A DNA stretch of 64,000 bases from Escherichia phage PSD2002. The notes beneath the pieces were generated by a model. It had not been told where the DNA came from and did not search any database. It saw nothing but the letters and a program-made list of their open reading frames with translations. The stretch lies in the sequence record OK335775.1. One strand, 5' to 3'. The number at the start of each line of letters is the position of its first letter. The stretch's first letter is position 1. A program made the translations under genes and the position numbers. Below are positions 30,858-61,189 of this stretch, piece by piece.

Positions 30858-31070
30858 ATGTTTAAGAAATTGATTCAGAAATTATTAGGTACGGAAATGG
30901 TCGAAGTGACTTATCGTGTAACTGATTTATCTCCTGTGCATCCACAAGATGAACCATATACTAAAACAATTAAAATGCTGAAATCTGACGGCGGATTATC
31001 TATTAAAGACCGTCTACCTTGTTATGGTCATTGGGCTGATGTAGAGATTATCAGTGTCAAAGATATTTAA
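30858..31070 (+). CDS. Hypothetical small protein, tandem paralogue A
   Basis: 70 aa; MFKKLIQKLLG.E.VEVTYRV.DLSP......IISVKDI shared with adjacent ORF. Confidence 0.5.
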   Translation: MFKKLIQKLLGTEMVEVTYRVTDLSPVHPQDEPYTKTIKMLKSDGGLSIKDRLPCYGHWADVEIISVKDI

Positions 31071-31079
31071 GGAGTCTTC

Positions 31080-31292
31080 ATGATTAAGAAATTATTTAAA
31101 AAGCTGTTTGGCTTGGAACTGGTTGAAGTGACTTATCGTGTTATTGATTTATCACCGCCATATGCTTGCGATGAAGATGCTATTAAAACTGTTGTTATGC
31201 GAAAAACATATCGCGGGCAGTCAATTAAAGAAAGATTGCCAGATCATGGCATGTGGTATGCAACCAAGATTATCAGTGTCAAAGATGTCTGA
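31080..31292 (+). CDS. Hypothetical small protein, tandem paralogue B
   Basis: 70 aa; about 50 percent identical to 30858..31070 with conserved termini. Confidence 0.5.
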   Translation: MIKKLFKKLFGLELVEVTYRVIDLSPPYACDEDAIKTVVMRKTYRGQSIKERLPDHGMWYATKIISVKDV

Positions 31293-31743
31293 GTTAGAAA
31301 TCAGAAGTAATTTTCCGTGGCCATCGTGTGCATTAAGTAACTTTGCTAAATGGCCTTTCGTTATGGATGGTATCCAATTTGGAGGGCTCGAAGGATTCCT
31401 CCAAGGGTGTAAGGTGAGAAATCATGAACAACAAAAACGTATATTTGGGATGTCCGGTCTGGCCGCACAACAAACTGGAAGAGCTTATGCAAGAGCTGCG
31501 GACCGTGGGACGCTTTTCTGGCTTGGAATTCCCTTTTCAAGATACTCTACATCATGGAAAGAGTTGTATACAAATGCATATTTTGAAGCAGCGCTCCAAA
31601 ACAAAGGATTCCGCGACGCATTACAAGCTACAAAGGGCAAAGTTTTAAAGCATTCGATGGCGAGTCACCTTACAGAATGTGATACAATACTAACTGAAAA
31701 AGAGTTTATCGACATCCTAAACAAATTGAGAGATTTATTATGA
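31285..31743 (+). CDS. NADAR (YbiA-like) domain protein, putative ADP-ribose/N-glycoside hydrolase
   Basis: 152 aa from ATG overlapping previous stop; LSNFAKWPF.MDG..F.G.EGFLQG.K resembles YbiA/NADAR core (SNFA.WP...DG...E..FQA.K). Confidence 0.55.
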   Translation: MSELEIRSNFPWPSCALSNFAKWPFVMDGIQFGGLEGFLQGCKVRNHEQQKRIFGMSGLAAQQTGRAYARAADRGTLFWLGIPFSRYSTSWKELYTNAYFEAALQNKGFRDALQATKGKVLKHSMASHLTECDTILTEKEFIDILNKLRDLL

Positions 31744-32668: not shown

Positions 32669-34195
32669 ATGATTTTAGATATTTTAAACGAAATTGCTGC
32701 TATTGATTCTACTAAAGCTAAAGAAGCCATTATTGCTCGTGAAAAGGACAATGAGCTTCTGAAACGTGTTTATCGTATGGCTTATACCCGTCGTCTGAAC
32801 TACGGTATTAAAAAGTGGCCAGAACCTGGATTTACATCTCAATCCTTTGGTATGATTACTCTTGAAGACCTTCTTGATTTCGCTGAATTCACATTAGCCA
32901 CACGTAAGATTACGGGTAATGCGGCTATTGAAGAACTGGCTCAAATCATTGCTGATGCTAAGGCCCCGGATGCCGAGGTATTACGTCGTGTAATGATGCG
33001 CGACCTTGAATGTGGTGCATCGATTTCTATTGCTAACAAGGTTTGGAAAGGTTTAATCCCTGAACAACCGCAGATGTTGGCGAGTTCTTATGATGAAGCT
33101 TTGATTAAGAAAAATATTAAATGGCCAGCGTTTGCTCAATTAAAAGCTGATGGTGCTCGTTGTTTTGCCGAAGTTCGTAACGATGGTGTGACATTCCTTA
33201 CTCGTGGTGGTAATGAATACCAAGGGCTTCATCTTTTAGCTGCTGAATTAATGGCGATGACCGAAGAAGCTCGTCAACGTCATCCTAATGGCGTTATGAT
33301 TGATGGCGAATTAGTTTACCATACTCCTAAAGTTGAACCTAAAGCATCTAATGATTTGTTTAGTATGTTTGACGAGGAACTTCCTGAATTAAGTAAAGCC
33401 AAAGAATTCCAAACTGTCGCCGATCGTTCTACGTCAAATGGATTGGCTAATAAGGCTCTTCAAGGAACTATCACCCCATCTGAAGCCGCTGGTATGGTAT
33501 TACAGGCATGGGATTATGTCCCACTGGATGTCGTGTATTCTGAAGGCAAAATTAAAGGTGATAAGTATGATGTACGCTTTACAGCCTTAGAACTTATGGT
33601 GGCTCATAATGTCGTATTGCATGGCACAACGCGTGTTGAAGCTATCGAAAACCAGTGGGTTAATAATCTTGAAGAAGCTAAAGTCGTTTATAAGAAATAT
33701 GTCGACCAAGGTCTGGAAGGTATTATCCTTAAGAACATGGACTCCTACTGGGAAAACCGCCGTTCTAAGAATCTTATCAAGTTCAAAGAAGTAATCGATA
33801 TTGCTTTAGAAGTGGTGGGTTATTATGAACACTCGAAGGACCCTAACAAACTAGGCGGTGTTGAATTAGTATCACATTGTCGTCGAATTACAAGTGACTG
33901 TGGTTCAGGCTTTAAAGATACCACCCATAAGAAAGATAAATCAGGTAAAAAAGTATTGATTCCATTGGAAGACCGTCCTGATTTAGACCGTGAACTTCTT
34001 ATGAAACAAGCTCGTGAAGGTAAGTTGATTGGACGTATTGCTGACTGTGAATGTAATGGTTGGGTTCATTCTAAAGGACGTACTGATACTGTAGGTATTT
34101 TCCTTCCAATTATTAAAGGTTGGCGTTTCGATAAAACAGAAGCTGATACATTTGAAGATGTATTCGGGTCGTGGGACCAAACAGGACTTAATTAA
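32669..34195 (+). CDS. 30: ATP-dependent DNA ligase gp30
   Basis: 508 aa from MILDILNEIA; ligase motifs (KADGAR adenylation lysine, IDGELVY, EGIILK) and overall colinearity with T4 DNA ligase. Confidence 0.9.
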   Translation: MILDILNEIAAIDSTKAKEAIIAREKDNELLKRVYRMAYTRRLNYGIKKWPEPGFTSQSFGMITLEDLLDFAEFTLATRKITGNAAIEELAQIIADAKAPDAEVLRRVMMRDLECGASISIANKVWKGLIPEQPQMLASSYDEALIKKNIKWPAFAQLKADGARCFAEVRNDGVTFLTRGGNEYQGLHLLAAELMAMTEEARQRHPNGVMIDGELVYHTPKVEPKASNDLFSMFDEELPELSKAKEFQTVADRSTSNGLANKALQGTITPSEAAGMVLQAWDYVPLDVVYSEGKIKGDKYDVRFTALELMVAHNVVLHGTTRVEAIENQWVNNLEEAKVVYKKYVDQGLEGIILKNMDSYWENRRSKNLIKFKEVIDIALEVVGYYEHSKDPNKLGGVELVSHCRRITSDCGSGFKDTTHKKDKSGKKVLIPLEDRPDLDRELLMKQAREGKLIGRIADCECNGWVHSKGRTDTVGIFLPIIKGWRFDKTEADTFEDVFGSWDQTGLN

Positions 34196-34365
34196 TGAAA
34201 GTTTATTTAGAAACAATTGTTATATCAAATACAAATATTACGGCAGTCTCTCAAATCATCCTTGATTTTGAGGACGAAATAGCTTTTGCCGATTTTAAAG
34301 ATACCTTCGATGGCTATGAAAAAGGCCCTACATTCGAAGTATATCGTACACTGTTACCACTTTAA
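34195..34365 (+). CDS. Possible small protein (56 aa), not in ORF track
   Basis: ATG overlapping ligase stop (TAATG); followed by short GC hairpin; weak RBS. Confidence 0.3.
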   Translation: MKVYLETIVISNTNITAVSQIILDFEDEIAFADFKDTFDGYEKGPTFEVYRTLLPL

Positions 34366-34382
34366 GGCCTTCGGGCCTTTTC
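34365..34382 (+). terminator. Short GC hairpin with UUCG loop
   Basis: aggcc-ttcg-ggcct followed by tttt. Confidence 0.4.
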
Positions 34383-34385
34383 TGG

Positions 34386-34393
34386 CATAAATA
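34386..34393 (+). promoter_or_regulatory. Possible late promoter (CATAAATA variant) for Alt-like operon
   Basis: cATAAATA 22 nt upstream of ATG with AAGAGGA RBS; first base deviates from TATAAATA. Confidence 0.4.
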
Positions 34394-34415
34394 AGGTTAT
34401 TAAAGAGGAATTATT

Positions 34416-36311
34416 ATGTCCGAACAATTGAATGAGGTATTTGATGGTGATATAAATTTATCTGCTGTCAATTTAAACCCTAAACTTAAAGTCCCACAGA
34501 TTTGGAATATAAAGGCTGAAGGTAACGAGAACCTTGTTGCCCGCATGGTTTCATATACTTCCGAAGGCGATGTAATTCGTCAGGTTAAGCCTGGTGACAA
34601 GTATGTTCATGTCGTTTTAATGAGCCTATCGGCTAAAGGTTCTCCTGCCGAACTCAAAGGTGGATTAGGTACCAATCCTATTTCCGCTATTCGTTCTATA
34701 TTTGATATCGTCTATGAACAGGTCAAGGCCCTTCGTATGGACGCTGTTATGTTCCGTTTTCCTACCAAGAAAATGAAAGGGCAGGAAAAAGCTATACAGA
34801 GGGTATTGGCTAAATTAATAGCCTCTAGAGCAGGCGGACAGTTTAAAGTTCTTGATGCCTTGTATCAATTCACCGGTAAGCATTCGTATGTTTTTATCTA
34901 TCGTAAAAATAAAAATATAGAATCTATAAATGGTATTCCTAATATTAATTTAGAATTGTATACTAAAGTCGAATCTGAAGTCGGTGACGTGTATGTTTCA
35001 AAGAAAACAGGCGAAGATGTTACCAAACTAGAAGCTATAGCTAAGTCCATAGACGAAATAGAAAAATCACGTTCTGATAAAACTGTTATAACCAAAACAA
35101 AGGTTTCTAAACGTGCTGCTATCAATGCTTTATATCCTACAGCAGAGCCTACAGGATTGAGTAAATTTTCGGCAGAGCACAAAAAAGCTTATGCAGATTA
35201 TTCTGCTACTAGTTCCGTTCATTCTTCTGAAGATTCTAAAGAAAGCCAAATAGCTTTAGCCAGTAATAAAATATTAAAAGACACCTCTAAAGAAATGGCA
35301 GAATATTTGGATTATATTTTTAACGGTGTTAATCCATCATTTGAAGTAGACGAGCGCAAACTTAAACTAATTGCTGATATAAAGTTTGCTTTAGAGGCAT
35401 CAGATTCTTTAGATAAATCTAATAGTGTCATAGAGGCTTTAAAATCAGGTAAATCTCATGTAGACATTCTTAGACTAGTCGCTGCGGCCCTTTTAGATGA
35501 TTCAGTTAAAGGTACTTGGGCTAGAGAATCTAAAATCAAGGAAGTAATAAAATCCTTAGTAGCAGTTTATACAAAATCTATCCAACCGTTGTTTAAGATA
35601 TCTGATAATCCTAATTTATCCAAACCTCAAGAAGAGGCAGTCAAAAAGTATACTCGTGGCGGCTACAACCATATAAACAACTTTTTGCTAGGTAAAACAG
35701 ATACCACCGATGAAATGATAAAAATGATTGGTGAGTTGGATTCTACATTTGAAAATGGTACAAAACTTCCTAAAGGAACCATAGTGTATCGTTCTCAGAT
35801 AATGCCTACCGAAATGGCTTTGAATTCTATAAAACATAAGGTGATGTATCTTCCTATTTTTGCATCAACTTCATTGGCTCCTAATATTTTCGGTGAAATG
35901 GGTCATGCTCAATCCAACTTAGACCCTGAAGCTCTTTCTAGCGATATAGATAGTAATCTTGAAGACACCATTAAAAGTGCGACCGGAAGTGCTAGAGATA
36001 CCATTAAGCTAGGGTTAATTATTAAAGGTGCTGATAAAATTAAGGTTATTGTGCCCGGTGACTTGGCTAATTGGTCTACAGAAACCGAAGTAATTCTTCC
36101 TCGTGGGGTTATGCTTAAGATTAATAAAGTATACGGTGCTTCCAAGGGACCTATGGGTTCAATTGGTAAATATGTTTTAGTGGAATGTGAAGTTGTAGCT
36201 ACCGAGCAAATCACAGAGGAAGATTCATATAGCACCGGATTCTCGTTTGGAAATTATGATAGAATTATGTATGAAGATTCTATGGAAAAATTAGCAAATT
36301 TATTTAAATAG
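34416..36311 (+). CDS. Alt-like ADP-ribosyltransferase paralogue 1 (putative injected head protein)
   Basis: 631 aa; conserved N-terminal about 230 aa shared with two downstream ORFs; LNE/VF N-terminus resembles prohead protease cleavage/capsid-targeting site; C-terminal R-S-E ART signature (VYRSQ, FASTSL, TETEVILPRG). Confidence 0.7.
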   Translation: MSEQLNEVFDGDINLSAVNLNPKLKVPQIWNIKAEGNENLVARMVSYTSEGDVIRQVKPGDKYVHVVLMSLSAKGSPAELKGGLGTNPISAIRSIFDIVYEQVKALRMDAVMFRFPTKKMKGQEKAIQRVLAKLIASRAGGQFKVLDALYQFTGKHSYVFIYRKNKNIESINGIPNINLELYTKVESEVGDVYVSKKTGEDVTKLEAIAKSIDEIEKSRSDKTVITKTKVSKRAAINALYPTAEPTGLSKFSAEHKKAYADYSATSSVHSSEDSKESQIALASNKILKDTSKEMAEYLDYIFNGVNPSFEVDERKLKLIADIKFALEASDSLDKSNSVIEALKSGKSHVDILRLVAAALLDDSVKGTWARESKIKEVIKSLVAVYTKSIQPLFKISDNPNLSKPQEEAVKKYTRGGYNHINNFLLGKTDTTDEMIKMIGELDSTFENGTKLPKGTIVYRSQIMPTEMALNSIKHKVMYLPIFASTSLAPNIFGEMGHAQSNLDPEALSSDIDSNLEDTIKSATGSARDTIKLGLIIKGADKIKVIVPGDLANWSTETEVILPRGVMLKINKVYGASKGPMGSIGKYVLVECEVVATEQITEEDSYSTGFSFGNYDRIMYEDSMEKLANLFK

Positions 36312-36319
36312 GATAGATT

Positions 36320-38401
36320 ATGACCCAATTAAATGAAGTGTTCGAGTCCGAAGGTACACTGCCTGTTGTGAACTTGAACCCAAAACTTAAAGTACCTCAG
36401 ATTTGGAAGATTGGAGACGCGGAGTCTCAGTTAGTAGCACGTATGGTATCCTACGCTTCTGAAGGTGATGCTATTAAACAAGTTAAAATGGGTGATAAAT
36501 ATGCCCACGTTATCCTTATGAGCCTTTCAGCTAAAGGTTCGCCTGCCGAACTTAAAGGCGGCTTAGGCCCTACTCCTGTAGATGCGATTAATACTATTTT
36601 TGATGTGGTTTATGACCAAGTTAAAAAGCTTCGTATGGATGCCGTGATGTTCCGTTTCCCTACTAAGAAAATGAAAGGTCAAGGCCCTATCGTTCAACGG
36701 ATTATCCAACGTTTGGTAGCACAGAAAACCGGTGGACGTTTTAAAGTGGTTCCGGCTATGTACCAATTTACCGGTAAACATACTTACATCCTGGTAGTTC
36801 GTAAACAAGCTGATATAGAAGATATCAAAGGTATGCCTGGAATTAATGCTGAATTGTATACTAAGGTAGATTCTGATGTCGGTGAAGTTTATATTTCTAA
36901 AAAAGAAGGCGTACAGGTTACTAAAGAAACTGCTATCGCCGGTAGTATTGCTAAGGTTGAAGAACGTCGCACTGATAAAATGGTTATAACCAAGACTAAG
37001 ATTTCTCGACGTGCTATTGCAGCAAGTCAATCGTTAGAATCTTATCGTAATGAAAGTGGGCTGTTTAAGAAATATGAAGCTACTGCAGTAGATTTTAATA
37101 AACCGGCAACAGTTCCATTAATCCCTGAGGCCCAGGAAATGGTCACTAATAACAATTCTCCTGCGGCTAAAAATAAGGTTGCTAATATAGTAGCTGAAGG
37201 CACTGCTGAAGAATTGCATTACGACTATAAATTGTTCCCACTTCACGGTATTGGTGAAATCCAAGAGAAAATTAAAGAGAAAATTCTTACAGCTATCAAA
37301 AATGAACCTTTGACATCTGTTAAAGCCCTGGAAAAATATGCCTCTACCATTAATACCATTTTCGAAGAATATAAAGGCGAGTGGCTGGCTATCCATAACA
37401 GAACTCGTAAAGGCCAACCTGACGACGTCTGGAATGAATTAACCGAGTCCAAGTGGAAAGCAGCCAAGACTAAGTTCATTAAAAAACGTGTGTATAGTTT
37501 TGCTGGCGTAGGTGGTGGTATTATGGTCGATATTACTATTGCTCGTGAGGGCTCTAAATATACCCCATCACAAAAGCGCGGCATCAGAGAATATTGTGGT
37601 TCAGGATATACAGACATAAATAATCTTCTTTTAGGACGTTATAATCCCCAGAACTATGAGGTTATGAGCGAAAAAGATATCGAATCTGCAGTTAATAATT
37701 TGGATTCCGCTTTTGAAAATGGCGACCGTATACCAGAAGGCATCACAGTTTATCGTGCACAGAGTATGACTGCTCCTATATACGAAGCACTAGTTAAAAA
37801 TAAAGTGTTCTATTTCAGAAATTTTGTATCTACTTCTTTAACTCCTATAATTTTCGGACGTTTTGGTGTTACACACGCTGGTATTGGTCTTTTAGAACCG
37901 GAAGTTCGCAACGAATTGACAGTTGATAAAAATGAAGAAGGAATAACTATTAATCCTAATGAAATAAGAGCGTATAAGGAAAATCCCGATTACGTTAAGG
38001 TTCAAATAGGATGGGCCATTGATGGGGCTCATAAAGTTAATGTCGTATATCCAGGAAATCTCGGAATAGCAACTGAAGCCGAAGTTATTCTACCGCGTGG
38101 ATTAATGGTCAAAGTTAATAAAATAACAGATGCTTCTAATAATGATGGAACAACATCTAGTAATACAAAACTCATCCAAGCTGAAGTTATGACAACAGAT
38201 GAGCTTCAAGAATCTGTTGTATATGATGGTGATGTACTAATGGAAACCGGCGAGTTGGTCGTATATCAAGATGACTTCGATACTTCCGAAAGCCCCTTAT
38301 CTTTTGATTCATTTGTTAAATCTACACGGTTTGATGTACTGCCTCTTTTGGCTTCATGCATAGACCTCTATGACATCCCAGAAAAATTCATCCAAGGGTA
38401 A
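36320..38401 (+). CDS. Alt-like ADP-ribosyltransferase paralogue 2
   Basis: 693 aa; same N-terminal module; ART signature VYRAQ, FVSTSL, TEAEVILPRG. Confidence 0.7.
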   Translation: MTQLNEVFESEGTLPVVNLNPKLKVPQIWKIGDAESQLVARMVSYASEGDAIKQVKMGDKYAHVILMSLSAKGSPAELKGGLGPTPVDAINTIFDVVYDQVKKLRMDAVMFRFPTKKMKGQGPIVQRIIQRLVAQKTGGRFKVVPAMYQFTGKHTYILVVRKQADIEDIKGMPGINAELYTKVDSDVGEVYISKKEGVQVTKETAIAGSIAKVEERRTDKMVITKTKISRRAIAASQSLESYRNESGLFKKYEATAVDFNKPATVPLIPEAQEMVTNNNSPAAKNKVANIVAEGTAEELHYDYKLFPLHGIGEIQEKIKEKILTAIKNEPLTSVKALEKYASTINTIFEEYKGEWLAIHNRTRKGQPDDVWNELTESKWKAAKTKFIKKRVYSFAGVGGGIMVDITIAREGSKYTPSQKRGIREYCGSGYTDINNLLLGRYNPQNYEVMSEKDIESAVNNLDSAFENGDRIPEGITVYRAQSMTAPIYEALVKNKVFYFRNFVSTSLTPIIFGRFGVTHAGIGLLEPEVRNELTVDKNEEGITINPNEIRAYKENPDYVKVQIGWAIDGAHKVNVVYPGNLGIATEAEVILPRGLMVKVNKITDASNNDGTTSSNTKLIQAEVMTTDELQESVVYDGDVLMETGELVVYQDDFDTSESPLSFDSFVKSTRFDVLPLLASCIDLYDIPEKFIQG

Positions 38402-38404
38402 ATA

Positions 38405-40528
38405 ATGGAAAATTTAAATGAGGTTTTTGATAGTGATTCCGCTAAAAACTATCCAGTAACAAATCTTAAACCGGGTTCCGGTATTCCACAGATTTTCTCT
38501 ATCCAAGCACCAGGTAATGATAATCTGGTTGCTCGTATGGTATCTTATGCGTCTCAAGGAGACGCTATTAAAATGGTTAAGCCGGGCGACAAATATGTTC
38601 ATGTTATCTTAATGAGTTTATCTGCTAAAGGCGCTCCGGCAGAACTCAAGGGTGGTTTGGGTACCGATCCACTCGGTACACTGAACACCATTTTCGATAC
38701 CATATATGAACAAATAAACAAACTTAAAATGGACGCGGTTTTGTTCCGTTTCCCTACTAAGAAAATGAAAGGTAAAGGTCCTACCGTTCAGCGCGTATTA
38801 GCTCGCTTGGCTATGGCTCGTACCGGTGGTAAGTTTAAAGTTGTTGACGACATGTTCCAATTCAGCGGAAAACATACCTACGTTCTTTTAGTACGTCGTG
38901 GTGCTAGTATTGAAGATATCAAGGGTATGCCTGAAATTAATGCCGATCTTTATACTAAAGTTGAGTCTAAAGTTGGCGAAGTGTATGTTTCTAAGAAAAC
39001 CGGCCAGGCTGTAAGTAAGGTCGAAGCCGTAGCGGCATCTATTGCACAAGTTGAAGAGAAACGTACTGATAAGGCTGTCATTACTCGTACTAAGATTTCG
39101 CGTCGTATGGCAGCGGCGGCGCAGTATTCTACTGCTGAGCCTGAAACTTTGTCCTCTAAAGAATTGCAGGTTTATAACGAGTTTGAAGCTTCTGTACCGG
39201 TTCACACGGCTGAAGGCCCTGAGAACGAAGGTATTGAACAGATTAGTCAGAACTTTAAAAAAGGTGCCATTACTAAAATGCGTCAGGCTTCTCAGTTTAA
39301 ATCTAAGAGCGAGGACCTTGCCAACTTTAGATACACTATTGCTCTCACACACGCTTTAATGACTGATAGTAAATTTAAACTAAATTATGCTAATAGAGAT
39401 AAACAAGGGTTTGAAATTTACTCTAATAATATGGCATTTTTTAATACAGAAGTCGATAGACTTTTAAGTGGCCTTTCGCAAATCAATACAACCAATAGTC
39501 TGGATATTATTAAGAAAATTGTTAATAACCTGAGTACCCGTTTTAAGGGTTCCCCTTCAGAGAAAGCATCTAGAATTGCTTTCGCTATGGAAGCCGTTTA
39601 TAAACTGGTTAACGATTCTATTAGTGATGCATATGCTTATTCAGGCGAGCTCATTAAACCTAAGGACCTAACCAAAGATGAAAGCAATGCTATTATTGAA
39701 TATTGCGCGGCTGAATATGCTCCTATGAACTTATTCCTTTTAGGTAAACCTGAATCCGAAAACAATACAACGGCTATTAAATTGATTAAGGATTTAGACT
39801 CAGCATTTACTAAGGGTATTAAACTTCCTAAGGGTACTATTTTGTATCGTGGTCAGGATTTGCCATACAAAATTCTGCGCCATAATATCGATAACAAAAC
39901 ATTTTACTTTAAGAACTTTGTGTCAGCCTCATTAAAGCCTAACATCTTTGGTGAATTCGGTAAAAATTATATGGCCCTCGACAACCAAGCCGTTTTTGTT
40001 GGTGGTGAAGGTTCTTTGTCCTCCGCTGATGAGTTGTTTAAATTGGCTAGTGGTAGTTCATCTGATGTGGGTGAAGTCGATGACGAAGAGGTAGAATGGG
40101 AAGAAGACGAGTTTGGTAATCCAATTGCACCTGAAGGTCCTGCAGATAGAATTGCTGAAATTGGTATGGTTATTCGAGGTGCTGAAGCAGTTAAAGTTAT
40201 CGCTCCTGGTGACCTTACAGAATATGCCGAAGAAGCAGAAATTATCCTTCCGCGTGGATTATTGTTGAAGGTTGATAAAGTAGCGGCTTTTGCCATGAAT
40301 GATAGAGTATCTCACAAATACCTTATGGAAGCTACCGTAACGCCTCCTTCAGAGCTCAGCGAATCTGTTTACGATGGTGACCATTTGATGGAAACTGGTG
40401 AAGTTCGCCTGATGGATGGATTTAGTCAATTCTTGGTTAATGAATCCGTTTCTGAAAGCAACGAAGCTATGGAAATCCTTGCCGCGTCTTTGGATATCTC
40501 TTCTTTATCAAATAAATTCAAAATGTAG
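38405..40528 (+). CDS. Alt-like ADP-ribosyltransferase paralogue 3 (variant STS motif)
   Basis: 707 aa; same N-terminal module; ART signature LYRGQ, FVSASL, EEAEIILPRG; extra acidic insert (DDEEVEWEEDE). Confidence 0.65.
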   Translation: MENLNEVFDSDSAKNYPVTNLKPGSGIPQIFSIQAPGNDNLVARMVSYASQGDAIKMVKPGDKYVHVILMSLSAKGAPAELKGGLGTDPLGTLNTIFDTIYEQINKLKMDAVLFRFPTKKMKGKGPTVQRVLARLAMARTGGKFKVVDDMFQFSGKHTYVLLVRRGASIEDIKGMPEINADLYTKVESKVGEVYVSKKTGQAVSKVEAVAASIAQVEEKRTDKAVITRTKISRRMAAAAQYSTAEPETLSSKELQVYNEFEASVPVHTAEGPENEGIEQISQNFKKGAITKMRQASQFKSKSEDLANFRYTIALTHALMTDSKFKLNYANRDKQGFEIYSNNMAFFNTEVDRLLSGLSQINTTNSLDIIKKIVNNLSTRFKGSPSEKASRIAFAMEAVYKLVNDSISDAYAYSGELIKPKDLTKDESNAIIEYCAAEYAPMNLFLLGKPESENNTTAIKLIKDLDSAFTKGIKLPKGTILYRGQDLPYKILRHNIDNKTFYFKNFVSASLKPNIFGEFGKNYMALDNQAVFVGGEGSLSSADELFKLASGSSSDVGEVDDEEVEWEEDEFGNPIAPEGPADRIAEIGMVIRGAEAVKVIAPGDLTEYAEEAEIILPRGLLLKVDKVAAFAMNDRVSHKYLMEATVTPPSELSESVYDGDHLMETGEVRLMDGFSQFLVNESVSESNEAMEILAASLDISSLSNKFKM

Positions 40529-40558
40529 TTTACAACACCACAAGGATGTGGTACTATT
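40528..40558 (+). promoter_or_regulatory. T4-type early promoter
   Basis: gtttac + 17-19 nt + tactat then GAGGAG RBS. Confidence 0.5.
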
Positions 40559-40585
40559 ACCTTACACAAACATGAGGAGAACATT

Positions 40586-40876
40586 ATGAAATCTGCATTC
40601 CGTTTTAATGGTCAAGAACTGGTAGTTGAAAACGTTATCCCTGCTTCCGAAGAGTTTGACAGTGCCGTAGGTAATGAATTACGTCGAGTTTTCGGTGAAG
40701 ACAAACAGTTTGATATCCGACCTGTTGAGAATTTTTCTTATCCAGAACAAACCGAAAACATTTTTAACGGTGTAGTGACAGGACAACTCGAATCTGAAGC
40801 TCCTATTTCTATCACGGTCTTTGTTAAAAAGCAGCCATTAATGACTGCAGCAGGTTTCATTTCGTTCCGTAAATAA
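40586..40876 (+). CDS. Hypothetical early protein
   Basis: 96 aa ORF between early promoter and bidirectional terminator. Confidence 0.5.
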   Translation: MKSAFRFNGQELVVENVIPASEEFDSAVGNELRRVFGEDKQFDIRPVENFSYPEQTENIFNGVVTGQLESEAPISITVFVKKQPLMTAAGFISFRK

Positions 40877-40883
40877 ACCCCTA

Positions 40884-40912
40884 AAGGAGAGCATATGCTC
40901 TCCTTTTTTGTT
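40884..40912. terminator. Bidirectional rho-independent terminator
   Basis: aggagagcat-atgctctcct palindrome followed by TTTTTT; separates convergent genes. Confidence 0.7.
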
Positions 40913-41864
40913 ATAACAGCCTCGATATTCCATTATTAATAGCACGCCCACCAAATGTATTAACCAATCCTGTTAATCCACTAGAAGCTCCTGAAAGTCT
41001 ACTTAATTTGGCCACTGAAGAACTCAGCGAATTGCTCTCACTTAGCCCAGCGACGCCTTTAATAATCTTATCTTCCAACCACTCATAAGCAGCTTGTTTA
41101 CCAACTGCACCCGTCTGTACACTTCTATAAGCAAATGTAACATCAAATGAAGCAATTTGGTTATCACCGTCGTAGGATAATTCCGGTGACGAAACACCAA
41201 CAGGAACACAACCATTAAGCATTACTACTGTATGGGGTAATCCATTACGAGAATGAAGGTTGACTTGAATGTCGGCTTCAACATCCTCGGGTAATGCTCT
41301 TAATTGTGTAATAGGGTCTTGAACACTATTAACCCAATCATTAAAAGCACGGTAGTTAGCAGCTTCAGAATCCATACGGAAGCTTAATACTAATGGAGAA
41401 TATTCTCTTCCGGTAATTTTGATGTTAGGTGAGTTGTGGTTCAAATCCATTTCATAGTTCAAAGTATTATCCGGGATTTTAACGGCGTGGACTAAAAGAC
41501 CTGCCGTAGGATAGGCCATATTGAAAAAATCCATCAGATATGTACCTACTTCAAACTCCCCTAGTAAGCTCTGCACAACCCTGGATGACATAGCTCCAAT
41601 CAAATATTTACTTATGCCTGACTTACGAATCAACTTCTGAGTGCCCGCTGTCACTAATGTCGTAACACCTTGGGTCAACTCTCCTTGTGTAATACCAAAC
41701 AAATCGCTATTCAATGGGATATTGTTAAATAAAGCTCCACCAAACTGGTCGAGGAGCGCTTGGGATTTAGAAGAAGGAACCGTAGCAAATACTACACTAA
41801 ACAGGTTATTCCTCTGTAGGTCAATATTAATTGCCTGGTTCTGAAATTCTTGTAAAGTATACAT
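40911..41864 (-). CDS. 54: Baseplate tail tube initiator gp54
   Basis: 317 aa; length and order (29-48-54) as T4. Confidence 0.8.
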   Translation of the reverse strand: MYTLQEFQNQAINIDLQRNNLFSVVFATVPSSKSQALLDQFGGALFNNIPLNSDLFGITQGELTQGVTTLVTAGTQKLIRKSGISKYLIGAMSSRVVQSLLGEFEVGTYLMDFFNMAYPTAGLLVHAVKIPDNTLNYEMDLNHNSPNIKITGREYSPLVLSFRMDSEAANYRAFNDWVNSVQDPITQLRALPEDVEADIQVNLHSRNGLPHTVVMLNGCVPVGVSSPELSYDGDNQIASFDVTFAYRSVQTGAVGKQAAYEWLEDKIIKGVAGLSESNSLSSSVAKLSRLSGASSGLTGLVNTFGGRAINNGISRLL

Positions 41865-54431: not shown

Positions 54432-54459
54432 AAGGGACCTTACGGTCCCTTTTATTTTT
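54432..54459. terminator. Bidirectional rho-independent terminator between rnlB and gene 24 paralogue
   Basis: agggacc-ttac-ggtccct followed by TTTTATTTTT; U-rich on both strands. Confidence 0.7.
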
Positions 54460-55732
54460 CTAAAGGCGGTAATTTTACGCCGAGATAAGAACTCAATTGA
54501 CTTTGATTAGCCATTTTGTCCATATCAGAACCATCAATAATGCGGGCTTCTTTATCGTCCTTAGCGACGGTATAAGGGTTTGCAGACAATGCATAACGAG
54601 CAAGCAATGCTACTGTAGGTTGTAAGCTTTCCGGGTCAACAATAACCTTAAATTCACCAACTGAAGTATCACCTTCTTCGTCAACCACATTCAAACCTTC
54701 CGTATAAGGCGCATAATATAAAGATGCGACCGTCTGTCCTTCACCCATCTGGGCATTTACACCAACAATAACATAATCACATGGACTATTCATATCAGCA
54801 TAAAGTGGTAGGCCATTCTTTAATATACCATAAGCCAATTCGTCCTGGTCTTCCTTTTTCTCAACCCAACCAGAGGCGGCGAGAATAGCAGCACAACGAG
54901 AACTAGCTACTGCATAAGTCCCGGCAAAAGAAGTCTGTCGTTGGACGGCAGAGTTCATCTCACACATATAATAATATAATGTGCGAGCACGGTCCTGGGC
55001 ATTATCGTAGCGAGGGTTGGTAAGGTCTAATACACCCTTTTCAGAAACACCCTGGACTTTAAAACGAGAGCTCACGGTAATTAATGACTGTAATACATCC
55101 TTATTAATTTCTTCTGCCATTTGAATGCCTAGCAGATTTTCAACAAAATTAGGAGCATTAAACCCGTTAGATTCTAGGTCTTGGGCTAATTCGACTGTCA
55201 ATGAAGTTTTCAGTTTACGTGATTTAACTTCAGATTGCCATTTGTCGATACGGAATCCGGTTTCAGCAATTTCAGGATGGCCTTGTTCAAATTTAGAAGT
55301 AATAGCAGCATCCGACACCATACGGATATGGCCGGCTGCCACTGCTTCAGAAATAACTTCGCTGAGGTTGGTTTCTGTGGTTCCGGCGAAAGGAGATGCT
55401 TCTAGAACTTTAAACACTACGCTTTCAAACTGGAACATATCACCGACCGCATAAGCTGTAGATGAATCAGTAAATTCTGGAATATTTTCACGTTCCGTCA
55501 TACCAATCTGGCCCGCAAATGTTGCTCCACCAAGATAAGTCATTTTGTCGTCAGGATTCAGTACACGTACCCCATACAGAGCAGCAACCGGTTGATTTGT
55601 TTTTTGTTCAGCAACTAGGGCTTTAAAGATTCGTTTATTAGTTGCTTGGGTGTATGAAAGAAGAGCAGGACGGCCAACCGAGCTGGCAGCCGTCAATGTG
55701 GATTCTTTAATTAGGTCTACAATCTTAGACAT
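54452..55732 (-). CDS. Capsid vertex protein gp24 paralogue (second copy)
   Basis: 426 aa; about 50 percent identical along whole length to the adjacent gp24 (shared blocks SRKLKT.LTVELAQD.ESNGF.AP.F, INKDVLQSLITVS, YAPYTEGL, RYALSANPYTVAKDDKEAR.ID). Confidence 0.8.
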   Translation of the reverse strand: MSKIVDLIKESTLTAASSVGRPALLSYTQATNKRIFKALVAEQKTNQPVAALYGVRVLNPDDKMTYLGGATFAGQIGMTERENIPEFTDSSTAYAVGDMFQFESVVFKVLEASPFAGTTETNLSEVISEAVAAGHIRMVSDAAITSKFEQGHPEIAETGFRIDKWQSEVKSRKLKTSLTVELAQDLESNGFNAPNFVENLLGIQMAEEINKDVLQSLITVSSRFKVQGVSEKGVLDLTNPRYDNAQDRARTLYYYMCEMNSAVQRQTSFAGTYAVASSRCAAILAASGWVEKKEDQDELAYGILKNGLPLYADMNSPCDYVIVGVNAQMGEGQTVASLYYAPYTEGLNVVDEEGDTSVGEFKVIVDPESLQPTVALLARYALSANPYTVAKDDKEARIIDGSDMDKMANQSQLSSYLGVKLPPLEK

Positions 55733-57015
55733 TAATCAGCCTCGTAAATAATTGCCGGAAGTTTAACGCCAACCAGATAAGACATATTGCTCTGTCCAGC
55801 CATTAAATCCATATTGGTTGCATCGATAACACGAGCTTCTTTATCGTCTTTAGCCACGGTGTACGGGTTAGCTGATAGTGCATAACGAACCATCAGAGAA
55901 ATAGAAGGTTGTAATGAATCCGGGTCAACAATAACCTTATAAGCACCGACGTGTTCTTGGTCATCTAAATCTAAGCCTTCGGTATAGGGAGCGTAGAAAA
56001 TAGAACCGACAACTTCATTACCGCCGTAATTCTCTTTAACACCAACGGTAACATAATCTAATGGACTGTTAACGTCACAAAACAGAGGCAGACCATTCAA
56101 CAAATATCCGTATGCAGTTTCCGGAAGCCAATTATTATCTTCGGGTTTATGTTTTAACCAGCCAGAACCTGCAAGCATTGCAGCCACACGACTTGAAGCC
56201 ACAACAAACGTGCCAGAATAAGAAGTAGTTTTCTGGATTTCAGAATTCATCTCACAAACGAGTTCATAAAGTTTACGTGCAGATTCAGGAGCACTGTCAT
56301 AAGACAAATCGATGATGCCGTTATCAGATACACCAGTAACTTTATAACGTTTGGATACGGTTATTAGAGATTGCAGAACGTCTTTATTAATTTCATCTGC
56401 CATTACTGTAGCCAAGAGGTCTTCTAAGAACGCCGGCGCGTCAAAGCCATTTGATTCCATATCCTGCGCTAATTCTACAGTCAAAGCCGTCTTCAATTTA
56501 CGGGTCTTAACCGGAGCATTCCATTTATTAACCTGGAATACAGCATCAGAGATTTCTACATCACTCGCTTCAAATTTAGTGGTATGGGCAGCATCAGGAA
56601 CCAGACGACATGTTAATGACACTAAACCTTCTTGAAGAGCATCAGCCAATTCTGTGGCGCTAGTGGACGCGAGTGGGCTTGCTTTAAGAGCCTTATAAAC
56701 CACATTCTGGTACTTGAAATATTCACCCTGAGCAATCGCCTGGGCCTTATCTGTGAGTTCTGGGATAGTTTCACGGTCTTTAGAACCAACTTCACCACCA
56801 TAAGAGGCACCTGTCTGGAAACTAAATTCATTATCAGGGGTAAGATATTTGACACCATACAGTGCAGCAATAGGCTGGCTAGTACGTTGTTCGGCGATAA
56901 TATCACGGTAAATCAATTTGGTTGTAGCACGGGTCAAAGCAACAAGATTAGGGCGACCCAATGAGTTGCTGGAAGTAGTTGTTGACTCGCGCAGTAATTC
57001 GTTAATCTTTGCCAT
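55732..57015 (-). CDS. 24: Capsid vertex protein gp24
   Basis: 427 aa; MAKINELLRESTTT...GRPNLVALTRATTKLIY... matches T4 gp24; late promoter upstream. Confidence 0.9.
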   Translation of the reverse strand: MAKINELLRESTTTSSNSLGRPNLVALTRATTKLIYRDIIAEQRTSQPIAALYGVKYLTPDNEFSFQTGASYGGEVGSKDRETIPELTDKAQAIAQGEYFKYQNVVYKALKASPLASTSATELADALQEGLVSLTCRLVPDAAHTTKFEASDVEISDAVFQVNKWNAPVKTRKLKTALTVELAQDMESNGFDAPAFLEDLLATVMADEINKDVLQSLITVSKRYKVTGVSDNGIIDLSYDSAPESARKLYELVCEMNSEIQKTTSYSGTFVVASSRVAAMLAGSGWLKHKPEDNNWLPETAYGYLLNGLPLFCDVNSPLDYVTVGVKENYGGNEVVGSIFYAPYTEGLDLDDQEHVGAYKVIVDPDSLQPSISLMVRYALSANPYTVAKDDKEARVIDATNMDLMAGQSNMSYLVGVKLPAIIYEAD

Positions 57016-57432: not shown

Positions 57433-58992
57433 TTAGATACCTTTAACATATACACGACGGAAGTAACCATTCAGACCAAGGCTGTTAACGATGTCAGGCA
57501 TACCGCTCTGAATACGTTTGGTAGGAGCCTGTGCAGACGGGTCAGCGAACGGGTTGATACCGATACCGTAACGAGTTTTGAAGCCCATTACCGGTTGGAA
57601 GTTCTTCGGATCGGAACCACGCAGCGGGGTCAGTGCAACGTATGGAGCATAGTAGATACCTGCGTCCATTTCGTTAGCGCCTTTATAACCGATGGTGAAG
57701 TAATCGGAACGTGCATACTGGTCGATGTAAACGCGATATTTACCACCAAGAACACCGGCAAATACTGCTTTGGTTGTGTCAACGTTGAAACCTTGACCCA
57801 GACCTTGAGCTGCATAACTTACAGAAGTATCAACTGCAGCCAGTACGTTAACTACGTTACGGGAAGCGATGATGAAGTTACCAGCACCACGACCGGTCTG
57901 ACGAGCGATTTCGGCTGCTTCTTTATCAATCTGGAACAGAAGGGCTTTAAAGCTCTCACCGGCCCAACGAGCACCACGGATATCAATCGGGTCCTGGAAG
58001 TCAAACACACCAGCTTTAGCGCCAACGGTGTTGGTCATACCAGATTTACCAACCTGTGCAGAGTAGTTAATCCAATCGATAACTTCACGGTTGATTTCGA
58101 GCATAATTTCGGTAGCAAGGATACCGGACAGTTCAGCATCTGCATCCATACCGTGTACTGCACGAAGGTCCTGTGCCAGTTCGATAGAGTAGCTTGCTTT
58201 CAGCTGACGGGATTTAGCTTCGATAACTTGTTTGTCGATGCGGAAGCCCATTTCGTTCCACGGGTTATCGGTAGAACCGTTAAAGCCTTCCTGAAGTTCG
58301 GCGATAGAAGTAGCCATACCTTCAGCCAATTCAGCCAACTTACCAGCTTCAATCAAAGCGGTAACAGCAACATCCAGTTTAGCGGCATCAGTAGCAGCAG
58401 CATCAACGGTTACGGCTTCGACAGCCTGGAAGTGTGCAGCACCGGTAGCTTCGAAGAAGTGAGAATAAATTTTACCAACTTCCAGAACTTTGCTTGCAGC
58501 CAGTGCTTCGAAAGTTTCAGCAGCACCCTGACCAGAGAACATAGCGTCTGGAGAATACATCGGATGGAAAGCTTCTTTAGCGCCAGAAGCGATAGGGTCT
58601 TTACCATAAACTGCACGAAGGGCAAATACCTGGCCGGTAGGGTTATTCAGAGGCTGAACACCACAAATATCAAAAGCAATCAGATGAGGAATAGCACGAC
58701 GAACCATACCCATTACTGCCGGCCCAATCTGAGTTACAGCACCAGAAGTCTGGCCAGCTGCGATATTGGTAGCATCATAACCGTGGTCACCACCAATTTC
58801 AGCTTCGGTCAGGAAAGAACCAAATGCTTCAGAGATTTTTTCATCACGATATTCCGGAGCAGTCAGGATGTCTTGTTCCTGGTTTTCGAAAATTTTAGCG
58901 ATGATAGCTTGTTTAGAAGCACCCACGATTTCAGGAAGGGCTTCGTTTTCCAGCAGAGCGGACCATTTTTGAACTAATGCATTCTTTTTCAT
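57433..58992 (-). CDS. 23: Major capsid protein gp23
   Basis: 519 aa; near-identical blocks to T4 gp23 (EIGGDHGY, ATNIAAGQTSGAVTQIGPAVMGMVRRAIP, MGFKTRYGIGINPFA, FRRVYVKGI). Confidence 0.95.
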   Translation of the reverse strand: MKKNALVQKWSALLENEALPEIVGASKQAIIAKIFENQEQDILTAPEYRDEKISEAFGSFLTEAEIGGDHGYDATNIAAGQTSGAVTQIGPAVMGMVRRAIPHLIAFDICGVQPLNNPTGQVFALRAVYGKDPIASGAKEAFHPMYSPDAMFSGQGAAETFEALAASKVLEVGKIYSHFFEATGAAHFQAVEAVTVDAAATDAAKLDVAVTALIEAGKLAELAEGMATSIAELQEGFNGSTDNPWNEMGFRIDKQVIEAKSRQLKASYSIELAQDLRAVHGMDADAELSGILATEIMLEINREVIDWINYSAQVGKSGMTNTVGAKAGVFDFQDPIDIRGARWAGESFKALLFQIDKEAAEIARQTGRGAGNFIIASRNVVNVLAAVDTSVSYAAQGLGQGFNVDTTKAVFAGVLGGKYRVYIDQYARSDYFTIGYKGANEMDAGIYYAPYVALTPLRGSDPKNFQPVMGFKTRYGIGINPFADPSAQAPTKRIQSGMPDIVNSLGLNGYFRRVYVKGI

Positions 58993-59013: not shown

Positions 59014-59829
59014 TTAAGAAATTCGTGATGCTGCGATTGCAGACAGGTCCGCGAAGGACAGGGTAGGCTTAGCGCCTTTTTCTTCAACTGCTTCTGAAAT
59101 GTAATTCAGTGCCGCAGCATCGTCTACATTTTTATTTATAGCGGCTTCGGTGATTGGGTTTCCAACGTCAGACTGACCTTTAACCATTTCAACAATAGCG
59201 CCAATTTTTTTACCGAATGCATCGGAATAATCCATGCCTTCTACCAGAGAACTGACTTTTTCTTTTTGAGATTCGGTCAGGTCTTTAGTTGCTTCCGTAA
59301 CAGCAACTTCACGCTGTACGTAATTAATATACGCATCGCGCATACCAACTTCTTCGAACAGACGAGCGGTTTCATCTTTCTGCTCTTGGAGCTCTTCTTC
59401 CATTTCAGCAACAACATCTACTGCTTCTTCTGGAACAACCACATTGTGTTCAACAAACAGTTCTTTCATACCCATCAACATGGATTCGAAAAGTTCGGCT
59501 TTAATACCTTTATCAACAGCCAGCTGGTTTTCAGCCATCCATTCTTTAGCAACGTGGTCAAGGAAACGACCTGCAGCTTCTTGGATTTTCTTATCGGCTT
59601 TTTCTTCAGCTTCTTCTTTATTTTTCTCGACTTCTTCTTCCGCTTTTTCAGCGATTTTAGCGATGTGAGATTCAGCCAGTTTCACGGCGTGTTGCTTGAC
59701 GGTAGCTTCGAATACAGTGCCGAAAGTTTCTTTTGCTTCCGGAGAAATATTAACTGATTCGAAAATACTATCAAGAGCAACGGAAGCATCAATATTCTGT
59801 GCTTCGGCAATCAGTTGTTCTTTAAGCAT
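59014..59829 (-). CDS. 22: Prohead core scaffold protein gp22
   Basis: 271 aa acidic coiled-coil protein (T4 269 aa), position between 21 and 23. Confidence 0.85.
   Translation of the reverse strand: MLKEQLIAEAQNIDASVALDSIFESVNISPEAKETFGTVFEATVKQHAVKLAESHIAKIAEKAEEEVEKNKEEAEEKADKKIQEAAGRFLDHVAKEWMAENQLAVDKGIKAELFESMLMGMKELFVEHNVVVPEEAVDVVAEMEEELQEQKDETARLFEEVGMRDAYINYVQREVAVTEATKDLTESQKEKVSSLVEGMDYSDAFGKKIGAIVEMVKGQSDVGNPITEAAINKNVDDAAALNYISEAVEEKGAKPTLSFADLSAIAASRIS
59133..59140 (-). promoter_or_regulatory. Possible late promoter for gene 23 inside 3' end of gene 22
   Basis: Plus-strand tatttata (minus TATAAATA) about 140 nt upstream of gene 23 start. Confidence 0.4.
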
Positions 59830-59856: not shown

Positions 59857-59864
59857 TATTTATA
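59857..59864 (-). promoter_or_regulatory. Late promoter for gene 22
   Basis: Minus-strand TATAAATA about 28 nt upstream of gene 22 ATG. Confidence 0.6.
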
Positions 59865-60495
59865 ACGCTTTTTTCATGGCCTCTGCGAGAGCCATAAAGG
59901 CGTCATCGGCACTGGTATCGGTATCTACCGTTTGTGATTCTGTAATTTGCTTTGGAGTTACATAAGCATCAGGAGCAGATGGTCCCCATACTGCATCAAC
60001 ACCGACGGTTAATTTATAACCTTCGTTTACACGCTTATATCCTTTGTTGGTTTCGGTTAAAGAACCAAGACCACGAGAACTAACACCAGGAACCCAACCA
60101 GCACGGATATTTGCAGCTAGTTTATCACCCGGACCATGGTCACCTTCGATGATACGTGCACGTCCATAAACATCATTACCTTTCCACCACATATCTTCAA
60201 TAATGATAGCGGCTTGCATAGGGTCAACGTTAGCACGAGGTGGATGGTTTAATTCTCCTAAAGCTTGTTTAGTAGCAACCTGTTCTGCCATATAATCAGA
60301 AACGGCTTTTTCCAAAATAGGTTTTGGGTAAAGGCGTTTATTACGGTTAACTACCTCTGCTTGCATGAAAATGCCTTCTATATAAAGGCCGGGAGCAAGC
60401 CCAGAATTTTTTCCATCATGAGATTCCAACATAGGAACCCCATCGATAATTTCACCTGGTTGTCCCCAATGTTCGATGAGCAATTCAGGTTTCAT
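59860..60495 (-). CDS. 21: Prohead core protease gp21
   Basis: 211 aa; near-identical to T4 gp21 (GEIIDGVPMLESHDGK, GLYIEGIFMQAEVVNRNKRLYP, ELNHPPRANVDPMQAAIIIEDMWWKGNDVYGRARIIEGDHGPGDKLAANIRAGW). Confidence 0.9.
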   Translation of the reverse strand: MKPELLIEHWGQPGEIIDGVPMLESHDGKNSGLAPGLYIEGIFMQAEVVNRNKRLYPKPILEKAVSDYMAEQVATKQALGELNHPPRANVDPMQAAIIIEDMWWKGNDVYGRARIIEGDHGPGDKLAANIRAGWVPGVSSRGLGSLTETNKGYKRVNEGYKLTVGVDAVWGPSAPDAYVTPKQITESQTVDTDTSADDAFMALAEAMKKAL

Positions 60496-60923: not shown

Positions 60924-61189
60924 TATTCATCGTCCTCGTCTTTGCCATCATCACCTTCGTCCGCATCGTCAGATTCTTTTTTGTCTTTCTTATCTGCTTT
61001 ATCGGATTTTTTGTCATCTTCGTCTTCGTCATCTTCGTCGGCTTCTTCGCCTTCAATCATAACGGAGCGAGCAATTTCTGCTTTACGGGCTTCAATCAAA
61101 GCGGCTACTCGAGATTCGATAAGCGGGGCTGCTGCTTTACGAACTGCTACGAGGTCGTTTGATTTAATAGCTTCGATTAAATCTTCCAT
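60923..61189 (-). CDS. 67: Prohead core protein gp67
   Basis: 88 aa with highly acidic C-terminus, position after gene 20. Confidence 0.65.

Follow-up and report, generated by a model that had tools for sequence, protein, structure and literature searches.

Alt is the classic phage enzyme that is injected with the DNA, and the version that has been studied is that of T4 only. What should one make of a T4-like phage that encodes three diverged Alt proteins side by side? This question is raised by Escherichia phage PSD2002 (sequence record OK335775.1), of which we analysed a stretch of 64,000 nucleotides (hereafter the window; all positions are counted from its first letter). A first-pass annotation, made from the letters of the window and without database searches, had proposed that three consecutive genes encode Alt-like ADP-ribosyltransferases (ARTs) with a shared N-terminal module and divergent effector parts, which would be packaged in the head and injected, possibly against several distinct host targets. 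We consider it likely that these are three co-oriented Dhakavirus alt genes whose products are injected, swappable ART effectors carried on genus-specific handles. The main addition of this work is clear evidence, drawn from sequence comparison, for a cassette-wise exchange of Alt effectors between genus-specific, putative loading modules.

Three intact alt genes in tandem

The three genes, whose products are here named AltA, AltB and AltC, are intact open reading frames on the same strand:

AltA: 34416-36311, plus strand, intact open reading frame of 631 amino acids (aa)
AltB: 36320-38401, plus strand, intact open reading frame of 693 aa
AltC: 38405-40528, plus strand, intact open reading frame of 707 aa

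The coordinates and lengths given in the first-pass annotation were exact. The genes are separated by 8 nucleotides (nt) between AltA and AltB and by 3 nt between AltB and AltC. In a three-way alignment, the first ~235 aa are 62-67% identical between pairs, whereas the middle reaches only 11-22% and the ART part 34-37%, which bears out the conserved N-terminal part of about 230 aa and the divergent middle that had been described. The likeness is far above chance, with inter-paralogue tblastn E-values of 1e-132 to 1e-142. All of the motifs listed previously were found again, among them those of the C-terminal part (VYRSQ, VYRAQ or LYRGQ; FASTSL, FVSTSL or FVSASL; ETEVILPRG, EAEVILPRG or EAEIILPRG). 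The alignment also confirmed two peculiarities of the third paralogue: AltC has S-A-S where AltA and AltB have S-T-S, and it carries an acidic insertion of 26 aa (EVDDEEVEWEEDEFGNPIAPEGPADR) between the STS motif and the ExE motif. The stretch from one motif to the other counts 72, 82 or 103 residues in the three paralogues, and its sequence differs between them.

The locus is 98% identical to that of Escherichia phage vB_EcoM-E33 and 96-97% identical to those of PSD9, LQ5, ABTNLS3 and WG01, all of which are T4-like phages of the genus Dhakavirus. Since the array recurs in several phages that were sequenced independently, an assembly artefact is excluded.

Family, fold and catalytic residues

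The Pfam profile PF03496 (ADP-ribosyltransferase exoenzyme) matched AltA, AltB and AltC with E-values of 6.5e-14, 4.1e-36 and 2.6e-17, respectively. The corresponding scores (52.2, 124.6 and 63.3 bits) are all above the curated gathering cut-off of this family, which is 23.4 bits. The three proteins also gave full-length matches to PHROG 802, "Alt-like RNA polymerase ADP-ribosyltransferase" (E 1e-205 to 1e-263), and none to NCBIfam. The catalytic residues are R459, S484, E556 and E558 in AltA, R479, S504, E586 and E588 in AltB, and R482, S507, E610 and E612 in AltC, i.e., the arginine, the first serine and both glutamates of the proposed C-terminal R-S-E signature are present in every paralogue. 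Among 70 diverse homologues the serine and both glutamates (ExE) are invariant, and the arginine is kept in at least 90%. The ExE of the paralogues aligns with E574/E576 of T4 Alt, of which the second is the residue mutated as "E577A"; the E577A variant of T4 Alt is inactive (PMC11404850).

We modelled AltA with AlphaFold2 on a 70-sequence alignment (mean predicted local distance difference test, pLDDT, 82.9; predicted template modelling score, pTM, 0.74). The model comprises an alpha/beta N-terminal domain, an all-helical middle and a beta-rich C-terminal domain. In Foldseek, the C-terminal domain matched the ART toxins Vis, C3, iota Ia, CDTa and VIP2 at probability 1.0, and the alignment of AltB and AltC with the modelled protein suggests that they share its fold. 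A sequence search of the PDB did not find a solved Alt structure, the ART domain giving weak matches to iota/CDTa only. The arginine and the ExE of AltB align with those of the iota-like toxin CPILE-a. By their domains, the three products are predicted to be R-S-E (ExE, arginine-type) mono-ADP-ribosyltransferases. The first-pass annotation had named the lack of an ART fold or of an Alt-family match in the C-terminal domains, or a match of the N-terminal module to an unrelated family of structural proteins, as grounds for dropping its proposal, and the family, fold and catalytic-residue results all point the other way.

Conserved putative processing sites at both ends

T4 Alt is found in about 40 copies per head; it is part of the prohead core, is trimmed by the protease gp21 and is ejected with the DNA (PMC9958956, PMC9026906). 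Its gp21 cuts were mapped by mass spectrometry to ITE-6 and LTE-619, which leave a mature protein of 68.2 kDa (PMC5694885). We transferred these two positions onto an alignment of 145 sequences of the family. The transferred sites give 68.2 kDa for T4 Alt, matching the published mature mass. The P1 glutamate is kept in all 145 family members at the N-terminal site and in 144 at the C-terminal site, and the P3 leucine or isoleucine in 142 and 140 of them, respectively. Both sites mapped in T4 are therefore conserved, as motifs, in all three copies, which is new here. They predict the following layouts and mature forms (the slash marks the putative cut):

AltA: N propeptide 1-7, N module 8 to ~232, helical middle ~233-395, ART ~396-601, C propeptide 602-631; N site LNE/V, C site ITE/E; predicted mature form 8-601, 65.3 kDa
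AltB: N propeptide 1-6, N module 7 to ~230, middle ~231-405, ART ~406-631, acidic C propeptide 632-693; N site LNE/V, C site LQE/S; predicted mature form 7-631, 69.4 kDa
AltC: N propeptide 1-6, N module 7 to ~233, middle ~234-415, ART ~416-653, acidic C propeptide 654-707; N site LNE/V, C site LSE/S; predicted mature form 7-653, 71.1 kDa

The N-terminal protease site had been recognised in the first-pass annotation, and it does align with ITE-6 of T4; the conserved C-terminal site and the acidic C-terminal propeptide had been overlooked. The protease itself is encoded in the window, and we predict that it trims both ends of each Alt in trans:

gp21 prohead protease: 59860-60495, minus strand, PF03420 (Peptidase_S77), E 2.8e-103

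The N module is strongly basic (isoelectric point, pI, 9.6-9.9; net charge +11 to +15), and a model of this part of the protein leaves residues 1-10 disordered. For the C propeptide, which is acidic, the pI is 4.1-4.3. An Alt homologue has been detected in the virion proteome of an RB69-like phage (PMC6563131).

Slots and relatives of the three copies

Few phages carry AltA, an accessory copy that phage SP18 shares. It is missing from the two-copy Dhakaviruses JS10, JS98 and IME08, and its effector part was found at an identity of at least 99% in only seven of 50,697 phage records, with less than 60% in all others. Next to these seven, alta of Shigella phage SP18 (Gaprivervirus) comes closest, at 70% identity in the N module and 58% in the effector. 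AltB is the orthologue of the classical T-even Alt, with an effector of the T2/T6 type. Its identity to T4 Alt amounts to 49% over the whole protein and to 60-61% in the ART domain. The ART of AltB comes closer to the cassette found in Yersinia phage ZN18, T2, T6, RB14 and some 320 other Tequatrovirus records, at 85% identity in protein and 90-96% in DNA. AltC, which is present in every Dhakavirus examined, is a conserved second-slot paralogue. Some Tequatroviruses have this slot occupied as well: the intact second alt gene of L005 and L008/ZN18 encodes an effector that is 58% identical to that of AltC.

The same comparison clarifies what became of this slot in T4. When T4 alt.-1/alt.-2 (L002, 5034-5454) is compared with the second copy of L008 (10098-12155), the first 348 nt match at 96% DNA identity, followed directly by the last ~20 nt. 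This pattern indicates that T4 lost its second alt gene by an internal deletion of ~1.7 kilobases (kb), whereas the gene is intact in the ZN18-type Tequatroviruses. The earlier statement that T4 carries a single alt thus holds for intact genes, but it misses that alt.-1/alt.-2 is the remnant of a second copy.

The two copies of JS10 are of the AltB and AltC types. In QL01 the third alt copy (L012, 10083-12128) lies between those of the AltB and AltC types, and its effector is of a type unlike AltA. This middle copy is 76% identical in the effector to altb of SP18 (L024, 6885-8945), against 39% between the N modules. Because the extra copy of QL01 has another position and another cassette, three-copy arrays arose more than once. 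The copy number was two or three, with three copies in about 14 distinct phages (counted over the ~50 records whose N module is most like that of AltB). Larger arrays of apparently four to five copies, in LHE83 and 04086, were rejected. The circular record of LHE83 starts within one gene, which is thereby cut in two; the annotation of 04086 has only three alt genes at the locus, and two other matches were not located.

Mosaic exchange of effector cassettes

Alt proteins that are nearly identical in one part may be very different in the next, both within and between genera:

AltB and the slot 1 copy of JS98 (within Dhakavirus): N module 97%, middle 34%, ART 69% identical
AltC and the middle copy of QL01: N module 92%, middle 19%, ART 34% identical
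T4 Alt and ZN18-type Alt (within Tequatrovirus): N module 100%, middle 33%, ART 72% identical
ZN18-type Alt and AltB (between genera): N module 46%, middle 64%, ART 85% identical

Along the gene, DNA identity changes abruptly near nt 700 (aa ~230) and nt 1830 (aa ~610), e.g., from 97% to 35-70% and then to 95%. Across the two genera, the 90-96% DNA identity of the ART core stands against ~65% for the flanking genes. Neighbour-joining trees are discordant, with N modules grouped by genus and effectors grouped by type across genera. In the 145 sequences, the AltB-type cluster of N modules is associated with four effector types and the AltC-type cluster with five. The identities of the middle and of the ART correlate at 0.94 in this set; hence, the two move as one unit. 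The swapped unit thus lies between the N module on one side and the C-terminal region that surrounds the gp21 site on the other, and both of these brackets are genus-specific. Such brackets would fit a matching of each Alt to the head core of its own phage.

The alt locus of T4-like phages might, more generally, be a polymorphic injected-effector system, in which genus-specific handles carry a cassette that is traded among slots and genera (Tequatrovirus, Dhakavirus and Gaprivervirus), each cassette is tuned to a different host target or defence, and three effectors are injected at once. We put this forward tentatively, with its chances a little short of even.

Distribution and fold of the N module

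The N modules of the paralogues are 43-46% identical to that of T4 Alt. Alt homologues are assigned to Pfam family PF26846 in precomputed database annotations. A word-indexed query with the N module returned three proteins only, owing to a limit of the index, and we replaced it by a full-length query and by an exhaustive HMMER search over 1.84 billion representatives (clusters at 50% identity). The N module was found in just 71 clusters and was N-terminal in all but the two weakest matches. Most of the proteins that carry it are 600-712 aa long. Ten atypical ones were scanned with Pfam, half of which carry PF03496 above its threshold. Four metagenomic proteins (P0172, P0171, P0176 and P0174) join the Alt N module to sequence without a recognisable ART; the rest of these proteins, which total up to 1142 aa, matched neither Pfam nor PHROG families. 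The carrier may here bear a cargo other than an ART, or the proteins may be chimeras of assembly.

The fold of the N module matched other Alts among predicted viral structures (BFVD). It also resembles large uncharacterised proteins of unrelated phages (template modelling score, TM, ~0.45-0.6; 9-15% identity), some of which are annotated as zeta-toxin, deaminase or ParB/Srx. The fold may be a general carrier of head cargo, for which these resemblances are leads rather than a demonstration. When a GNAT acetyltransferase fold was considered for the N module, a confident structural match to GNAT domains was not obtained, and residues 1-395 of the paralogues had no Pfam match at E ≤ 1, to the Phage_Mu_F domain or any other.

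Neighbouring genes and expression signals

The gene order is that of T4: DNA ligase (gene 30), alt.1, the alt genes, alt.-3 and then, on the opposite strand, genes 54, 48 and 29. The array is flanked by the following features:

34195-34365, plus strand, alt.1 homologue of 56 aa (PF24647, E 5e-23), between gene 30 and the array
34366-34410, plus strand, signal block upstream of the array (hairpin, promoter-like box and ribosome-binding site)
40586-40876, plus strand, alt.-3 homologue of 96 aa (DUF5498 in Pfam, E 3e-34), in the position of T4 alt.-3 and the last plus-strand gene of the unit
40883-40906, plus strand, terminator-like hairpin (ten-pair stem, then a T run), between alt.-3 and the converging gene 54, whose end lies at 40911 on the minus strand

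The alt.1 homologue has the position of T4 alt.1 and is annotated in phage E33 as "Alt.1 conserved hypothetical protein". Mutations that extend the C-terminus of T4 Alt.-3 lead to escape from the CmdTAC defence (PMC11618068). The signal block ahead of AltA consists of a GC-rich hairpin (GGCCTTCGGGCC) followed by TTTT, a late-promoter-like box (CATAAATA) at 34386-34393 and a strong ribosome-binding site (AAAGAGGAA) at 34402-34410. The block is kept 5' of the first alt gene in JS10, QL01 and T4, and a conserved terminator upstream of alt has been described (PMC1524935). In T4, the exact late-promoter consensus TATAAATA occupies the position orthologous to the CATAAATA box, which may function here as a promoter. 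We saw no comparable promoter-like block ahead of AltB or AltC, and the three alt genes are therefore probably co-transcribed. A second CATAAATA box at 37615-37622 (plus strand), within the coding region of AltB, could be due to chance.

Other head genes lie next to the gp21 gene:

57433-58992, capsid protein gp23 (PF07068)
59014-59829, scaffold protein gp22 (PF25623)
61189-62763, portal protein gp20 (PF07230)

The gp24 of the window retains the T4 cleavage site MAKINELLRE/S. Two gp24-like capsid vertex genes, 54% identical, are found in tandem (54452-55732 and 55732-57015, minus strand), each with an (L/I)-x-E motif at residues 8-10 (LRE/S and IKE/S).

On the other side of the array, a gp30.3 homologue is encoded at 31285-31743 (plus strand; PF08010, E 4e-64). 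According to recent work, T4 30.3 is reportedly AdfN, which removes DarT-made ADP-ribose from DNA. The homologue, as an AdfN-type gene, would place an ADP-ribose-removing counter-defence gene ~3 kb upstream of three ADP-ribose-adding ones. Two adjacent, paralogous open reading frames of 70 aa (30858-31070 and 31080-31292, plus strand; MFKKLIQKLLG... and MIKKLFKKLFG...) had no Pfam match and form a small tandem duplication in the gene 30.x region.

Proposed mechanism and alternatives

The mechanism that we propose starts from what was observed: how the genes are built, the family to which they belong, the ART fold, the conserved motifs for catalysis and cleavage, and the mosaic exchange. Each Alt comprises a short putative N propeptide ending in (L/I)-x-E, a strongly basic N module of ~225 aa, a helical middle, an ART, a second (L/I)-x-E and an acidic C propeptide. 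By homology with T4 Alt, each would be incorporated into the prohead core, be trimmed at both ends by the gp21 of the phage and remain in the DNA-filled head. The Alts would then be injected with the DNA and, within seconds of infection, ADP-ribosylate host proteins in a reaction dependent on nicotinamide adenine dinucleotide (NAD+). AltB has the classical T-even effector (the known targets of T4 Alt include RNA polymerase alpha), AltC is an old second paralogue that T4 lost, and AltA is a rare extra. The N module and the C propeptide would serve as genus-specific "loading handles" and the middle plus ART as the effector cassette, moved by recombination between copies and genera. With such handles and a swappable cassette, one phage could load several different injected effectors.

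Some observations weigh against this mechanism. The packaging and cleavage of all three paralogues are deduced from their homology with T4 Alt. The CATAAATA box is one mismatch off the T4 late consensus, and the exact TATAAATA was not found when searched for in 34000-41000. The C propeptide of AltA has only 30 aa, is poorly conserved and was modelled with low confidence; hence, the handling of AltA in the head could differ from that of the other two.

It is plausible that AltA, AltB and AltC have different targets, given that their middles are unrelated in sequence and that each effector type is a lineage that persists across genera. The copies could instead be redundant and raise the dose of one activity, the alteration of RNA polymerase. 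They do have the ExE arginine-type signature and the overall layout in common, and reviews already attribute many substrates to T4 Alt alone. Yet, the low identities of the middles (11-22%) and of the ARTs (34-37%) make redundancy unlikely. In C3-type enzymes, the stretch from the STS motif to ExE includes the substrate-recognition loop, and this is where the paralogues differ in length (72, 82 or 103 residues) as well as in sequence. The effector types have been kept as distinct lineages across genera, and against Mokosh type I one Alt variant did not substitute for another, since plating was restored by T4 Alt but not by the Alt of phage Bas37 (preprint 10.1101/2025.11.20.689424).

One might also suspect that AltA and/or AltC have no catalytic activity and are kept in the head as internal proteins with a structural or target-binding role, since T4 Alt has also been viewed as a core or structural head protein (PMC11404850) and AltC combines S-A-S with a large acidic insert within its ART domain. 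We regard this as very improbable. The arginine, the first serine and both glutamates, which are invariant or, for the arginine, at least 90% conserved in the 70 homologues, are kept in all three proteins, every one of them scores above the Pfam gathering cut-off, and the AltA model is a confident ART fold. Moreover, the motif may take the form S-x-S in active ARTs. Another division of labour would have AltB alone packaged, with AltA and AltC acting in the producing cell like ModA and ModB; direct packaging data among the paralogues are indeed limited to T4 Alt. However, ModA and ModB of T4, proteins of ~200 aa, are not known to have gp21 sites, an N module or a C propeptide, whereas all three Alts combine the two gp21 sites with a basic N module and an acidic C propeptide, and a single late-promoter-like block precedes the three genes. 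We find this division decidedly unlikely.

Finally, the shared N module might stem from recent gene conversion between tandem copies and not from selection for loading, as N modules cluster by genus instead of by effector type, which is the pattern expected under concerted evolution. But the N modules of the paralogues are only ~65% identical in DNA, and identical amino acids are encoded by the same codon about half of the time, no more than elsewhere in the genes. Codon sharing is not higher in the N modules, which argues against recent homogenisation, and we therefore reject recent gene conversion, to which we give almost no credence. In addition, the AltA-, AltB- and AltC-type N modules form separate, stable clusters within the genus, and the N-terminal location of the module holds over the 71 clusters, with the exception of the two weakest matches.

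We retain, as the likely reading, three injected effectors on genus-specific handles. Recent work ties Alt to escape from the host defences MazF and Mokosh type I. Three diverged Alts on near-identical loading modules would constitute a natural experiment on the target specificity of Alt, and the conserved handles with their swappable cassette suggest a simple route to load chosen effectors into T4-type heads.

Comparison with known systems

The array itself is already in the databases and will not surprise specialists. GenBank and RefSeq annotate three Alt genes in E33, WG01, MX01, QL01, PSD9 and others, as ADP-ribosylases or "Alt-like RNA polymerase ADP-ribosyltransferase (x3)". Duplication of alt in T4-like phages is documented for RB49, 44RR and T4 alt.-1/alt.-2 (PMC1524935), and for JS98, Bp7, Ac42 and ZZ1 (PMC4177764). 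The novelty of the array is therefore low; what is added here are the conserved processing sites, the assignment of slots, including the copy deleted in T4, and the exchange of cassettes. Among Dhakaviruses, the alta/altb genes of JS98, JS10 and IME08 and the triple genes of WG01, MX01, QL01 and E33 are essentially the same genes as those described here, except that slot 1 of JS98 holds another cassette and that QL01 has its third copy placed between AltB and AltC.

The locus resembles that of T4, T2 and T6 in its order (gene 30, alt.1, alt, alt.-3, gene 54), and the proteins resemble their Alt in length class, N module and R-S-E ART. With T4 Alt they also have in common both gp21 sites and the acidic C propeptide. 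The locus differs in having three intact copies, where T4 has one intact alt and a remnant with a 1.7-kb deletion, and the ART domains of AltA and AltC are just 34-37% identical to that of T4 Alt. The toxins C3, iota/CDTa/C2 and VIP2 have the same catalytic fold and the same R, S-T-S and E-x-E motifs (PF03496), at 13-20% identity. They are delivered by a binary-toxin pore or by secretion, and Alt by the phage head; the adaptor domains of the toxins are replaced in Alt by the helical middle and the N module.

Polymorphic toxins and head-packaged polyvalent or MuF-fused effectors offer an analogy in the way they work only: a conserved delivery module is combined with interchangeable C-terminal effectors. 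Alt/VIP2 ARTs fused to the head protein MuF have been described (PMC9503650). In Alt, by contrast, the exchangeable unit is internal, with genus-specific parts on both sides, and immunity genes are absent. The internal proteins IPI-IPIII of T4 resemble Alt in that they enter the prohead core, are cut by gp21 behind (L/I)-x-E and leave the head together with the DNA. They are, however, small proteins with targeting peptides of ~10 residues, whereas Alt has an N propeptide of 6-7 residues, a module of 225 aa and a C-terminal propeptide.

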